Source of the DNA: a virus
Taxonomy: Duplodnaviria; Heunggongvirae; Uroviricota; Caudoviricetes
Length of the DNA stretch: 6,109 bases
IMG/VR virus record: IMGVR_UViG_2778261418_000002
Span: 1-6,109 of that record
Reading direction: 5' to 3' (one strand)
This document shows, in pieces, positions 1,496-5,797 of this stretch; position 1 is the first letter of the stretch, and every line of letters starts with the position of its first letter. The translations under genes and the position numbers were made by a program. The notes beneath the pieces are model-generated. The model ran no database searches. It worked only from the letters and a program-made list of their open reading frames with translations, and was not told the DNA's origin.

Positions 1496-1918
1496 TCACA
1501 GTACCGCCTCCTGAAAATTACCCTGATAGAAAGCCAGTACACGCTGCATAGCTTCGCTCTTCCGGCACTCGCGACAGATTATATTCAGGCGCCTGTCGTA
1601 GCGGCGTATTTCTCCGTCTGGTAATGACCAGATAAGGTCCGGATCAACCGCAGATGGTTTCTTCGGCTTTGCCCTTGAGAGCTTTTTACGGGCATTTTGC
1701 CAGTCCTTACGCGCCTGTTCAGACGGGAATAACCCGTAACCAGAGTTGTATACATCGCCACTGGCAACCAGCTCTCTGGCCAGAACGCTCATCAGATATC
1801 TTGTTGCCCCAGTTTTAGTTTCCAGTTGTCGTAACGTCTCGCGCCCACTCTGGCGTACGAGTTCAACAACCTGCCCTTTAATTTTTTCCCGCTCTTCTTG
1901 TGTAAATACTTTTGCCAT
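1496..1918 (-). CDS. hypothetical protein with an HTH-like segment
   Basis: Track ORF 1496..1933 begins with TTG. Preferred start is ATG at 1918-1916 (MAKVFTQEEREKIKGQ...) with GGAGG 5 nt upstream. HTH-like segment GRETLRQLETKTGATRYLMSVLAREL; C-x2-C near the C-terminus (CRECRK). Confidence 0.55.
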   Translation of the reverse strand: MAKVFTQEEREKIKGQVVELVRQSGRETLRQLETKTGATRYLMSVLARELVASGDVYNSGYGLFPSEQARKDWQNARKKLSRAKPKKPSAVDPDLIWSLPDGEIRRYDRRLNIICRECRKSEAMQRVLAFYQGNFQEAVL

Positions 1919-1933
1919 AGGTGCCTCCGGCAA

Positions 1934-2736: not shown

Positions 2737-3402
2737 TCAAACAAACCCAGCCGCTTTCCGGCGTTCATATTCCTGTTTCAGCAACTCAATTGGCGTTGGT
2801 CCCGCAGGACGTATGGGTGCTGCCAGTTGCCTACGGACGGGTGGAACACTCAGTCCGTTACCAACATGCTTTGCCCATTTCGTCAGCTGCCGTTCTGCAA
2901 GCCGTTTTAACTCCCCCTCGGTCATCTGCCGCTCAATCCCCTTTGAACGCATCTCGAGGCAAATGTGATACAGCACGGGCTGAGGCCACGGATATTTATC
3001 GCTTCCGTCGTATCGCCAGGACTCATTGCGCCAGCGGCGATATTCCTCCATCACGTTATCCACCGTCAGACCAAATGGATTTGCCCCGCTCTCCGAAATC
3101 AGCGCCACAAACTCAGCCAGGTCCGGAGGCCATGTTTCACCCGCCCGGCAGCGGTCCATGCACTGGCGGCAGACCTGCCGGATTTGCTGCTCAGTCATCG
3201 CGCCAATCTGTACAATCCAGAGCTTCGAAGGTGCGGCCCCGTTCTTCTGGGTCCAGCGGTTCGAATAAATCTCCCCCATGAGTTCCCACAGCTTCCAGGC
3301 AGTTTCCGTCGTTGATAAATCCGTTTTCACGTTCCCACTGCTCACGTGCTGCCCGAATTTCCTGAACTGCCCGTGATGCGGTGCCACCTGGTGCTGCTGC
3401 AT
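2737..3402 (-). CDS. replication protein P-like (lambda P family helicase loader)
   Basis: C-terminal two thirds align by eye to lambda P as I recall it ([19 protein letters not shown] / [13 protein letters not shown] versus lambda AESYPWKSNAHYWLVTNLY / TDAELRRKAADEL). ATG at 3402-3400 has a strong SD (AAGGGGG, about 6 nt spacing) but overlaps the O-like ORF by about 212 nt out of frame. Alternative in-frame ATG at 3198-3196 forms ATGACTGA with the O-like stop. Start uncertain. Confidence 0.75.
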
Positions 3403-4231
3403 GGTTTACCCCCTTGCTGACTGGTTTAGCCTGCGCCCTGACGTGATTTACGTGACGGGCGAATTTCTGCTCCCACTGAACCTGCGTGAAAACTTTACCC
3501 TCCGCTGCCCAGTAGTCCCGGAAGGCGGCAAGTTCAGCTGGTGTAAATTCCGGCTCCGGCAGAGCCACTCCCCACAGAGCCGCCCGTCGTCGAAAATCCG
3601 GCGACGGATGCCAGCCATCGGTCATCGGAAATTTCCCGATGGGTTCGCTCAGGCCTTCCAGGTAATCAGGTTCCGATGTTTGCAACGGCACGCCATTTGC
3701 CTCACTGACCGGAGCACTCTCGCGCACGCGCGCGTTATGTGTGGGGTTTAATTCTTTATCTGTATCTTTATCTGTCGTGACTCGTCGTGACATGTCGTGA
3801 CATATGCGTGACTCGTCGCGCGCCCCCTCATTCTGTTTTCGTAATTTTTCCCTCTCGCGCTGCGCTCTCTTGCGCTCTGCCGGGGATTTCGCGGTTTGTG
3901 AAACGTTGCCATTGTCCTCTTTCAGTACCTGGCGTTTTTCCCATCCACTGATCAAATCTCCATCAAGTACCCGCCCCTGCATTGCCTGTAAAATTGAATC
4001 AATTACTTCTTCCGTCACATCAAGCGCACTTGCTAAATCTTCCGTCGTGACATCAATGTGACCACGTAGTGACACGCCGTGACATGTCGTGACATTTCGT
4101 GACGCGCTCACCAGAAGGTGGATATACACAGCCATCACTGTTGCGATTGGCTGCCCTGACACCCTGGCAATTGTTCGCCACTTAGGGTCATTTGGCATGT
4201 CATGCCATAATCTGAGCCAGGCGTTAGCCAT
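3191..4231 (-). CDS. putative replication initiator (lambda O position; YdaU/DUF1376-like by recollection)
   Basis: Track ORF 3191..4237 begins with GTG. Preferred start is ATG at 4231-4229 ([18 protein letters not shown]...) with GAGGTG SD. Sits between the CII-like and P-like genes as O does in lambda. Contains two embedded GTGAC repeat arrays and an AT-rich block, as ori lambda lies inside O. The family name is from memory. Confidence 0.65.
3775..3812 (+). repeat. iteron-like array A: four direct (T)CGTGAC repeats at 10-11 bp spacing
   Basis: GTGAC at 3777, 3787, 3797 and 3808. Preceded by an AT-rich block with two ~11-bp direct repeats (tctttatctg, 3752-3774) and an alternating CG tract (3721-3734); followed by GCGCGCC. 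Confidence 0.55.
4044..4103 (+). repeat. iteron-like array B: six direct GTGAC-core repeats at 10-11 bp spacing
   Basis: GTGAC at 4047, 4058, 4069, 4079, 4089 and 4099, all in the same orientation. The motif falls in all three codon phases of the O-like frame (peptide [20 protein letters not shown]). Confidence 0.55.
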
Positions 4232-4302
4232 ACTCACCTCTTTTGATACCGAATCTTTTTACTCACAAATTGCCGGAAGTGATCTGGTATGAATATCGCG
4301 AG

Positions 4303-4728
4303 TCAATGCACAGCCACAATATTTCCTGCAGGGCCACCACGATTCATCTGGTTGAAACCAGCGATCGCCACTGCGACAAAATCATCAGCGTCTCTCACCA
4401 GTCGTTCCCGCGTCTCCACCAGCTCCCGAAAATAGGCTGAACTGTGGCTGCGCATTCGGGCCACCAGCAGAGGTGGCATTGCTTTTTCGATCGCTGGTAA
4501 CAACGCCTGAATTTTTTTAACCGCATCAGGGGTGTCTTTCTCCACCCAGCGGAATATTTTCTGAGTATTGCGAGCCAGGGCTTCCGGATGGCTGTCGTCA
4601 TATAGCTCCGGGAACGTCATACCAAGCTCAAAATAAGCCCGGGTTATTTCAGCTGCCGGAACTTTTTCACCGTCCGGATGCGCCCAGACATTCATCGCCA
4701 TGCGGATGTGTTCATGCTTGATTTTCAT
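4303..4728 (-). CDS. ydaT: YdaT-like protein (CII functional analog in Rac/CP-933P-type prophages)
   Basis: Track ORF 4303..4728, 141 aa. Begins MKIKHEHI and ends IVAVH, matching my recollection of E. coli YdaT in length and termini. Its ATG overlaps the stop of the Cro-like gene (TAATG). Occupies the cII position. Confidence 0.7.
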   Translation of the reverse strand: MKIKHEHIRMAMNVWAHPDGEKVPAAEITRAYFELGMTFPELYDDSHPEALARNTQKIFRWVEKDTPDAVKKIQALLPAIEKAMPPLLVARMRSHSSAYFRELVETRERLVRDADDFVAVAIAGFNQMNRGGPAGNIVAVH

Positions 4729-4940
4729 TAATCATTCTTTCCTTCGTTCGAGGTGCTATCCTGCTTCTTGTAAAGTTCTGGGTTGTATTTCAATTCACCG
4801 TTAGTAATTTCATCCAGTTCCATTGCGCGAAGTTTGGGAATAACTGCTTTCCACCGCACAACAGCCACATGTGAAATTCCAAGAGCCTCAGCTACTAGTC
4901 GCTTTTTTTTGAAATAGCGCAGAACATCATCTTTGAACAT
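4728..4940 (-). CDS. Cro-like HTH regulator (YdaS/DicC-like)
   Basis: Track ORF 4728..4940, 70 aa. ATG at 4940-4938 with AGGAG SD at about 6 nt. HTH signature KRLVAEALGISHVAVVRWK. First gene of the operon divergent from the repressor. Confidence 0.75.
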   Translation of the reverse strand: MFKDDVLRYFKKKRLVAEALGISHVAVVRWKAVIPKLRAMELDEITNGELKYNPELYKKQDSTSNEGKND

Positions 4941-4969
4941 AAAACTCTCCTGTTATTTCGAGCGGGAGG

Positions 4970-4983
4970 GTAACAATAGTTAC
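4970..4983. promoter_or_regulatory. operator-like palindrome GTAAC-AATA-GTTAC (proximal to cro)
   Basis: Perfect 5-bp inverted arms with a 4-bp spacer in the cro/cI intergenic region. Lies where the -10 of a leftward promoter would fall, given the perfect TTGACA -35 at 4996-4991 on the - strand. Confidence 0.45.
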
Positions 4984-5017
4984 ATAGAAATGTCAACCAT
5001 AGCAACATCACTTGGTA

Positions 5018-5031
5018 GTAACATTGGTTAC
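5018..5031. promoter_or_regulatory. operator-like palindrome GTAAC-ATTG-GTTAC (abuts repressor start codon)
   Basis: Same half-sites as the 4970-4983 site. Ends 1 nt before the ATG at 5032. Contains TAACAT, a possible -10 for a leaderless repressor transcript. Confidence 0.45.
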
Positions 5032-5706
5032 ATGAAAAACACTATCAGCGAACGTATTCGGAATCGTCGAAAAGACGTTGGATTAACCCAACAGCAGGTT
5101 GCGAAAGCAATCGGCATATCTCGTGTATCCGTAACAAAATGGGAAAATGGCTCTTCAAAACCTGACGGTGAGAATTTGCATCTACTGTCAAAATTGCTTT
5201 CCAAATCTCCTGAATGGATTCTTTATGGAAAGGACTGTCACGATAAAACCGATGATCTGCGTCTGAATCAGTACCCTTACATTAGTGACAACATCGCCCG
5301 GTTGCCCGTTTTAACGTGGGAACAGGCTGGTTATTGGGATATGAGTTGTCCAGTAACCGAGATTCCTGGTATTAAGAATTGGGTTGATGTCATGACAAAA
5401 ACCGCTGAAAACTCTTTTTTATTGCATGTTGAGGGAGATGCGATGACAAACTCTAACGGCCTCCCAACCATCCCCGACGGATCTACCGTGCTGATCACAC
5501 CATGCTCAAGTAACATTAGAGAACTGGTGGGAAAAATAATCTTAATCCAATTGGAAGGAACGCCAAACGTAACACTAAAAAAAGTTGCGATTGACGGACC
5601 AAACATCTATCTGTTGTCACTGAATCCGCTTTACAAACCCATCGAACTGAATGGTGGTTACACCATTAAAGGTAAAGTTTCACAAATACATCAATACTTA
5701 GACTGA
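5032..5706 (+). CDS. CI-like prophage repressor: N-terminal XRE-type HTH plus C-terminal LexA/S24-like domain with Ala at the nucleophile position
   Basis: Track ORF 4933..5706 begins with TTG. Preferred start is ATG 5032 (MKNTISERIRNRRKDVGLTQQQVAKAIGISRVSVTKWENG), which leaves both operators intergenic; ATG 4990 is an alternative. C-terminal domain aligns by eye to lambda CI/LexA: QAG at the Ala-Gly cleavage position, VEGDAM where lambda has VEGNSM and LexA VSGMSM, and TLKKV...LNPLY versus lambda TFKKL...LNPQY. Confidence 0.8.
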   Translation: MKNTISERIRNRRKDVGLTQQQVAKAIGISRVSVTKWENGSSKPDGENLHLLSKLLSKSPEWILYGKDCHDKTDDLRLNQYPYISDNIARLPVLTWEQAGYWDMSCPVTEIPGIKNWVDVMTKTAENSFLLHVEGDAMTNSNGLPTIPDGSTVLITPCSSNIRELVGKIILIQLEGTPNVTLKKVAIDGPNIYLLSLNPLYKPIELNGGYTIKGKVSQIHQYLD

Positions 5707-5711
5707 GTCAG

Positions 5712-5738
5712 AACCCGCATTCATTGCGGGTTTTTTAT
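5712..5738 (+). terminator. rho-independent terminator of the repressor gene
   Basis: 8-bp stem AACCCGCA / TGCGGGTT with loop TTCAT, followed by TTTTTTAT, 6 nt after the stop codon. Confidence 0.65.
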
Positions 5739-5768: not shown

Positions 5769-5797
5769 TTGACTCTAATGGTAACTCTTGTTACCTT
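5769..5797 (+). promoter_or_regulatory. putative rightward promoter (PL-like) with embedded operator GGTAAC-TCTT-GTTACC
   Basis: TTGACT (5769-5774), 17-bp spacer, TACCTT (5792-5797; weak -10). The 16-bp palindrome at 5780-5795 has the same half-sites as the two operators in the cro/cI intergenic region and covers the spacer and -10. Confidence 0.4.

Follow-up and report, generated by a model that had tools for sequence, protein, structure and literature searches.

A probable replication origin of short, once-per-turn iterons inside the initiator gene of a lambdoid Escherichia coli prophage

Within the gene of an O-like initiator protein a cluster of short repeats lies next to an A+T-rich segment, which raises the question whether this part of the gene is the origin from which the phage is replicated. 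The DNA analysed here (the window, 6,109 nucleotides of the virus record IMGVR_UViG_2778261418_000002) belongs to a lambdoid E. coli prophage and represents its immunity and replication region. A first-pass annotation, made from the letters of the window, had proposed a replication origin at this place. As relatives from very different bacteria keep the repeats letter for letter, we suggest that the element is very probably the vegetative replication origin of the prophage, situated inside the gene of its own initiator. The genes of the region are the following.

4933–5706, plus strand: LexA-family cI-like repressor gene (open reading frame list and Pfam)
4728–4940, minus strand: Cro-like gene (open reading frame list and Pfam)
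4303–4728, minus strand: YdaT-family gene (open reading frame list and Pfam)
3191–4231, minus strand: O-like initiator gene, 346 amino acids from the ATG at 4231 (open reading frame list)
2737–3198, minus strand: lambda-P-like helicase-loader gene (Pfam Phage_lambda_P, PHROG 109 and the RefSeq annotation of a 99.9% identical copy)
after the lambda-P-like gene, minus strand: DUF1627 and DUF977 genes (open reading frame list and Pfam)

Besides the ATG at 4231 an in-frame GTG is present at 4237; RefSeq annotates the gene with 1041 nt in a copy that is 99.9% identical. The prophage of E. coli O126:H45 MIN10 carries such a copy, annotated alike, with hokD, dicB, and an exonuclease among its neighbours. 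In the window (1496–1933) the DUF977 gene is an intact open reading frame of 145 codons, but it is annotated as frameshifted in the MIN10 prophage (L132, 3893–4319), which is nearly identical otherwise. The initiator module is common, as sequence matching positions 3600–4300 of the window is present in 2274 of 5426 complete E. coli genomes, O157:H7 strains among them, and the initiator module is also found in prophages of many other Proteobacteria. The P-like protein matches Pfam Phage_lambda_P (E = 2.8e-16) and PHROG 109 (“P-like helicase loader”), has 22% identity to lambda P (E = 6e-7), and is a distant homologue of it. At 3191–3198 the stop codon of the O-like gene overlaps the ATG of the P-like gene (ATGACTGA); this arrangement points to a coupled translation of the initiator and its loader.

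The immunity region has repeats of its own. Three perfect GTAAC-N4-GTTAC palindromes are found in the window (4970–4983, 5018–5031, and 5781–5794; 0.09 expected, and none of 200 shuffles reached three), two of them in the divergent intergenic region between cro and cI and one about 75 bp downstream of the cI-like gene. These palindromes look like immunity-region operators, and the third site could allow looping. Directly after the stop codon of the cI-like gene a GC-rich hairpin followed by a T run is read from the sequence (5709–5737, gaacccgcattcattgcgggtttttt), likely an intrinsic terminator.

The elements inside the O-like gene are listed below.

3721–3734, no strand assigned: alternating CG tract cgcgcacgcgcgcg, coding for A-R-V-R-E, part of the Rac-type C-terminal module
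3747–3775, minus strand: A+T-rich block, candidate unwinding element, purine-strand-biased, reading ACAGATAAAGATACAGATAAAGAATTAAA on the gene strand
3776–3812, minus strand: iteron array A, four GTCACG cores (CGTGAC on the plus strand at 3776, 3786, 3796, and 3807)
3817–3822, minus strand: degenerate fifth iteron, 10 bp from the core at 3807, recognised by alignment with the loci L015, L072, and L061 and phage Evi
4014–4018, plus strand: single inverted core, GTCAC on the plus strand and thus GTGAC on the gene strand, in the codons GTG ACx of D-V-T
4046–4103, minus strand: iteron array B, six GTCAC cores (GTGAC on the plus strand at 4047, 4058, 4069, 4079, 4089, and 4099)

The four CGTGAC repeats of array A at a spacing of 10/10/11 bp (G of GTGAC at 3777, 3787, 3797, and 3808), the two copies of TCTTTATCTGT, the CG tract, and the GCGCGCC at 3818–3824 were all found exactly where the first-pass annotation had located them. 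The repeats are more frequent than chance would allow: CGTGAC occurs 10 times in the window versus 2.67 ± 1.70 expected, eight of these inside the two arrays, and none of 1000 dinucleotide-preserving shuffles of the window contained four identical 6-mers at 10/11-bp steps (at most three, in two of the 1000). The GCGCGCC had been taken for a flanking element of the origin design. This view has to be given up, since most close relatives have TGTCACGAC there and the GCGCGCC is accordingly a mutated fifth iteron. At the fifth position the window reads CGCGCG and most close relatives CGTGAC; in 80 related viral contigs, groups of 32 and 11 and others possess five sites in array A, and 14 share the variant of the window. 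In the window and these 14 relatives the fifth core was changed by a clustered substitution.

Array B belongs to a stretch (4040–4110) that had been named before only as an optional fragment in a cloning experiment. The stretch contains sites, at 4046–4103, and they turned out to be as strongly conserved as array A. On the gene strand the six cores are spaced by 10/10/10/11/11 bp. The inverted core is located 33 bp downstream of array B in gene direction; it is kept at gene nt 193 in most GTCACG-type loci, with GTG as the valine codon in 19 of 19 sequences. Among the 80 close relatives the number of sites varies from four to six in array B and from three to five in array A, and two of the six cores of array B in the window sit in a 21-nt insertion (seven amino acids, TCHGVSL) relative to most of the family. 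Insertions and deletions in the arrays measure 21 nt, that is seven codons and two sites; no smaller unit would preserve reading frame and helical phase together. The distance between both arrays, about 240 bp in the gene of the window, ranges from 219 to 319 bp across the family and does not keep the helical phase; thus, a fixed looped geometry is unsupported.

Such repeats inside a gene might reflect no more than a repetitive protein, a low-complexity linker whose conservation is a constraint on the peptide. The D-K/D-T repeat indeed resembles an ordinary charged linker, and the residues S, R, V, T, and H at the core positions are invariant in the protein alignment. Successive cores are, however, read in different frames. 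The cores of array A lie in frames 2/1/2/0 and encode E-S-R, C-H-D, M-S-R, and V-T-T, and those of array B lie in frames 2/0/1/2/1/0 and likewise encode different peptides. As a period of 10 bp rotates the reading frame and the peptides differ, the repeat resides in the DNA and not in the peptide.

The comparison of homologues argues against the peptide explanation as well. A scan with one genome per species gave 49 loci; the 22 of them that form the GTCACG-type comparison range from E. coli/Shigella to Entomomonas, Bordetella, Acidovorax, Gilvimarinus, and Pseudothauera, with GC contents of 33–69%. In these 22 loci GTCAC is found at gene nt 129/139/149/160 and about 387–418, and the rest of each 4.4-kb locus has few copies or none. 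The codon alignments read GCG TCA Cxx AAT GTC ACG / CGx GGT CAC xxx GAT GTC ACG for array B and xGT CAC GAx GxG TCA CGC xAx GTC ACG xxA GAT AAA GAT AAA for array A and the beginning of the following block. The codons TCA, GTC ACG, GGT CAC, and GAT AAA are invariant, and other conserved residues use three to six synonymous codons. Among the columns with a conserved amino acid, the 12 core columns have a normalised synonymous entropy of 0.064 and the 61 others one of 0.78 (Mann–Whitney p = 7.7e-8). With three to six codons in use in the other columns, the synonymous sites have reached saturation, so that common descent is no explanation for the fixed cores. Synonymous fixation is limited to the core and GATAAA codons, and the GAT AAA codons are retained even in hosts of 66–69% GC. 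We therefore regard a repeat without DNA function as the least probable of all explanations considered, its chance being practically negligible. The first-pass annotation had proposed to examine whether the GTGAC positions are conserved at synonymous sites beyond the need of the peptide, and this is what the 22 loci display; the opposite pattern, in which the peptide is kept and the cores vary freely and which it had named as a refutation, is not seen. Both the cores and the (GATAMA)n block are under selection at the DNA level that overrides codon choice.

The A+T-rich block directly adjoins array A and lies downstream of it in the direction of transcription. It contains a hexamer repeat, (GATAMA)3, at 3755–3772, and the sequence TCTTTATCTGT occurs in it twice (3753–3763 and 3765–3775) with a step of 12 bp. 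According to nearest-neighbour energies 3735–3774 is the least stable 40-mer within the O-like gene (z = 2.2 for the window). The block is nevertheless short (∼30 bp) and moderately unstable, and the window has five intergenic stretches of lower stability. The first-pass annotation had described the layout as iterons plus an unwinding element between CG tracts. The core of this description holds, as array A stands beside the A+T block; the CG flanks have to be removed from it, and the element consists of two parts with an equally conserved array B.

The CG tract is better explained by the mosaic structure of the gene. From the tract at 3721–3734 onwards everything downstream has ∼93% DNA identity to ydaU of phage Rac-SA53, which shares the CG tract, the GATACAGATA... 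block, and the C-domain, yet has an unrelated N-domain. In phage Evi the similarity extends over the N-domain, both arrays, and the (GATAMA) block and ends immediately behind this block, where a different C-module without the CG tract takes over. The tract, formerly regarded as an element of the origin, is thus a swappable part of the Rac-type C-module which is absent when another C-module is present, and we rejected the idea of conserved CG flanks around the unwinding element. Relative to the Rac-type and the Evi-type relatives the junction of the mosaic is the end of the A+T block, which indicates that the N-domain and the iterons travel as one exchangeable module. The C-domain together with the CG tract forms a second one. 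Further relatives join the same N-domain to several unrelated C-terminal modules.

A mosaic junction at the A+T block could also be expected if the element were a recombination site, and the conserved letters might belong to a packaging site or to a structure or signal in the mRNA. Several points disagree with this group of explanations, which we consider extremely unlikely as a whole. Junctions at origins are expected if the N-domain and its sites form one module, so that a recombination function need not be invoked. A packaging site is not in line with direct repeats on one helical face, which in a complete relative lie far from the terminase genes. As to RNA, no Rfam family matches the element and the predicted fold is no better than that of shuffled sequences (z = −0.78), by which an RNA element was ruled out.

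The distribution of core variants bears on the question where the protein that binds the cores is encoded. Diverged subfamilies without GTCAC keep the two-array layout with other cores. In the CGAACG(C) subfamily the cores are found at about 131/141/151 and about 355–411 with the peptide ASNATERGRT, and in the GTAACG subfamily at 139/160/181/224 and 412/422/451. In both a purine-rich A+T block follows which starts with CAGATAA and is in many cases a repeat (GATAMA)n with n up to nine. Between initiator subfamilies the core changes jointly in arrays A and B. Because array B overlaps the coding sequence of the N-domain, its linkage to the protein subfamily is automatic, and only the concordance between A and B is informative.

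One might argue that a host protein conserved across Proteobacteria binds the sites and that the phage gene merely tolerates them, as the same GTCACG core is found with hosts from the Gamma- and the Betaproteobacteria. On the contrary, a change of the initiator subfamily is accompanied by a change of the core to CGAACG or GTAACG, and this happens even within one host genus (Acidovorax, L097 versus L127 and L128), which indicates that the binder is encoded by the element rather than by the host. In addition, DnaA boxes are not enriched (13 near-matches, 13.15 expected), and none is associated with the arrays. Recognition by a host factor therefore appears very improbable to us.

The two-array rule has exceptions. 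The distant homologues L120 and L130 from Serratia and Pantoea have ACTACG repeats only near the position of array A (gene nt about 326–360) and no obvious array B. In L108, L113, and L118 a repeated core is absent, and a long (GATAAA)n run is present in L118 only. A denser arrangement than the usual once-per-turn pattern of the family occurs in L093 from Erwinia phyllosphaerae, where in gene nt 141–224 and 411–451 CGTCACG is also found at 5-bp steps, with some copies inverted (GTCACGTCACGTCACGTGAC).

The O-like protein encoded by the gene begins with an N-domain and a basic helix, which a disordered linker joins to a C-domain of the DnaT-like, single-stranded DNA-binding type. An AlphaFold2 model (58-sequence alignment, mean pLDDT 70) places helices of the N-domain at residues 2–11, 16–25, 29–45, 63–70, and 74–85, followed by a hairpin, and a conserved basic helix at residues 117–141. 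Residues 144–188 are disordered (pLDDT below 50) and separate the N-domain and the basic helix from the DnaT-like domain, which is modelled confidently. Array A and the A+T block encode residues 140–165 and thus lie within this disordered linker. The earlier proposal that the array sits in the linker-coding part of an initiator gene is borne out by this model and by the lambda-P-like gene which follows.

For the C-domain the assignment is clear. Pfam DnaT spans residues 201–268 (E = 2e-18), and Foldseek aligns the domain with the single-stranded DNA-binding domain of DnaT (PDB 6aeq and 4ou6) at 58–60% identity and target-relative TM scores of 0.85–0.92. The likeness to the host DnaT (window 3191–3630, residues 201–346) is very close for a phage module, and the domain is paired here with a P-type and not with a DnaC-type loader. 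An equivalent of full-length DnaT is not indicated, as NCBIfam PRK02854 gave 97.9 bits versus a cut-off of 201 and aligned only with profile positions 81–167 of 179.

The N-domain could not be assigned in the same way. The N-terminal 130 residues have 60–66% identity to proteins of Pseudomonas, Chromobacterium, Bordetella, Azotobacter, and others. No Pfam family covers the domain in a search with 58 members, and neither a PDB sequence profile search nor Foldseek gave a significant match to a solved DNA-binding fold, the DnaT C-domain being the only result. Matches to winged helix–turn–helix proteins (CAP, GntR) were too weak to be used (E = 7–9). Homology to lambda O was not detected with hhalign (58-sequence profile against lambda O, probability 0.14%), and Pfam Phage_rep_O matches none of the 58 family members. 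Pfam Phage_rep_org_N (PF09681) does not match the protein of the window and matches one of the 58 members weakly (E = 0.079). PHROG 4880, “replisome organizer”, is matched with E = 3.6e-5, and NCBI names many members of this O-like family “phage replisome organizer”. Earlier it had been supposed that initiator and iterons form a pairing distinct from that of lambda. We come to the same opinion, because homology of the protein to lambda O is not detectable and the sites are short direct cores and not 18-bp iterons.

If the O-like protein binds the cores, the arrays might be operator-like sites of this or another phage protein, used for autoregulation or as a roadblock, and the origin might be found elsewhere. 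Array B and the inverted copy are situated early in the gene, 130–220 nt past the start, where binding would block RNA polymerase, and short repeated cores do seem to serve as regulatory sites in this window, as the GTAAC-N4-GTTAC palindromes illustrate. Nevertheless, array A adjoins an A+T repeat that is kept against the GC content of the host, and a pure operator needs none. Position, order, and the P-like neighbour match ori-lambda, and the complete 40-kb genome of phage Evi has only two GTCACG clusters, both in the O-like gene; a distal third array, as SPP1 oriR would suggest, is absent from this genome. Promoter-like sites were not found within 3100–4400, that is inside the O-like gene and around it. 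Two terminator-like matches in the same interval are the CG tract on the antisense strand and were discarded. Sites with a purely regulatory function thus seem unlikely to us, and a regulatory role could coexist with origin function. None of the rival explanations accounts for the conserved A+T repeat together with the concordance of the cores in A and B.

For replication from this element we suggest the following course. The N-terminal part of the O-like protein would bind to the cores along one helical face, and the bound protein would form a nucleoprotein complex similar to the O-some, possibly joining arrays A and B across ∼240 bp. The stress or distortion exerted by this complex might open the adjacent (GATAMA)n block. 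Delivery of the host DnaB helicase to the opened DNA could then fall to the DnaT-like single-stranded DNA-binding domain and the P-like protein. Possible roles of array B are a contribution to cooperativity, restraint by the O-like protein of the transcription of its own gene, or looping.

Array B encodes about residues 44–62, which form a surface loop of low pLDDT between helices of the N-domain in the AlphaFold2 model. With considerable doubt we put forward that this loop may help to read the core, so that site and binding determinant would be coupled by construction and array B would be beyond auxiliary. The peptide of the loop changes with the core: SRNVTRGH with GTCACG, SNATERGRT with CGAACG, and SQNVT..GVT with GTAACG. 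Since the cores of array B are written in the codons of this loop, any change of the core alters the site and the protein at once. If the loop indeed reads the core, this would explain the concerted switches of specificity and also why the N-domain is 60–66% identical from E. coli to Pseudomonas and Chromobacterium.

An origin located inside the gene of the initiator is a textbook principle, known from lambda and from oriL of phage SPP1 (PMC7466680, PMC6316719). In lambda and the Stx phages ori-lambda lies in gene O and comprises iterons and an A+T-rich tract; the O-some assembles there and P mediates the loading of DnaB, and in Stx phages two extra iterons add 13 residues to the initiator (PMC7466680). 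The element described here resembles ori-lambda in its location in the linker-coding part between the N- and C-terminal domains, in the order of repeat array, A+T-rich tract in transcription direction, and P-like gene immediately after, and it resembles the Stx phages in that extra sites add amino acids in frame. In contrast, it uses 6-bp direct cores every 10–11 bp, whereas the lambda origin has four sites annotated as 18 bp. Further differences are the initiator with its DnaT-like C-domain and without detectable homology to lambda O, the second conserved array inside the N-domain coding region, and the hexamer repeat as A+T block.

The initiator G38P of SPP1 binds direct repeats beside an A+T-rich unwinding element in its own gene (oriL in gene 38) and has two discrete binding regions, the second of which, oriR, is ∼13 kb away (PMC6316719, PMC5615212). 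The prophage element likewise has direct repeats and an A+T-rich candidate unwinding element in the initiator gene, and two discrete regions, but both of its arrays are found in the same gene.

In the architecture of its proteins the module is close to DopC/DopE of Cellvibrionales and Oceanospirillales, a domesticated O-like protein with a DnaT C-terminal motif and a P-like protein (PMC5509034): in both an O-like N-part is combined with a DnaT-like C-domain, and the P-like gene comes next downstream. By the account of its authors neither iteron-like sequences nor origin function were reported for dopC (PMC5509034). The O-like family studied here differs in having strongly conserved iterons and in residing in a prophage, and our results bear on the domestication of DopC/DopE, for which iterons were reported absent. 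Two loci from Gilvimarinus (Cellvibrionales), L092 and L098 (gene at 2001–2966 in L098), contain pairs of an O-like and a lambda-P-like gene, either prophage or dopCE; they have full GTCAC arrays (129/139/149/160 and 387–418) and a YdaT-like gene before the pair.

An origin feature is not annotated in the copies that were examined, and a literature search (for the core, ydaU, oriJ, and replisome organizer with iterons) found no description of this origin, which is weak evidence as the coverage of subscription journals was thin. What appears to be new here are the 6-bp once-per-turn cores of this initiator family, the second array in the coding sequence of the N-domain, and the unwinding block of hexamer repeats. 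Now that core and layout are defined, sequence alone can serve to predict where the origin of such a prophage lies and to which replication-specificity group it belongs. The natural specificity variants GTCACG, GTAACG, and CGAACG are ready for swap experiments, and the locus lends itself to a clean study of how selection acts on DNA sites which overlap codons. It is the wide spread of this common initiator module and the clean overlap of coding and site constraints that carry its interest.

For the Rac prophage itself an active origin, oriJ, has been reported (PMC3945230). Rac YdaU is similar to the O-like protein in its C-terminal half (∼93% identical DNA, including the GATACAGATA... block and the CG tract), yet its unrelated N-domain is without GTCAC cores, and an inverted repeat, TGTTCAAACA/TGTTTGAACA, is found upstream of the A+T block instead. 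In phage Rac-SA53 (L002) ydaU gene nt 420–540 correspond to about positions 3721–3775 of the window, with this inverted repeat just upstream of the block, and its position may mark the Rac origin oriJ.
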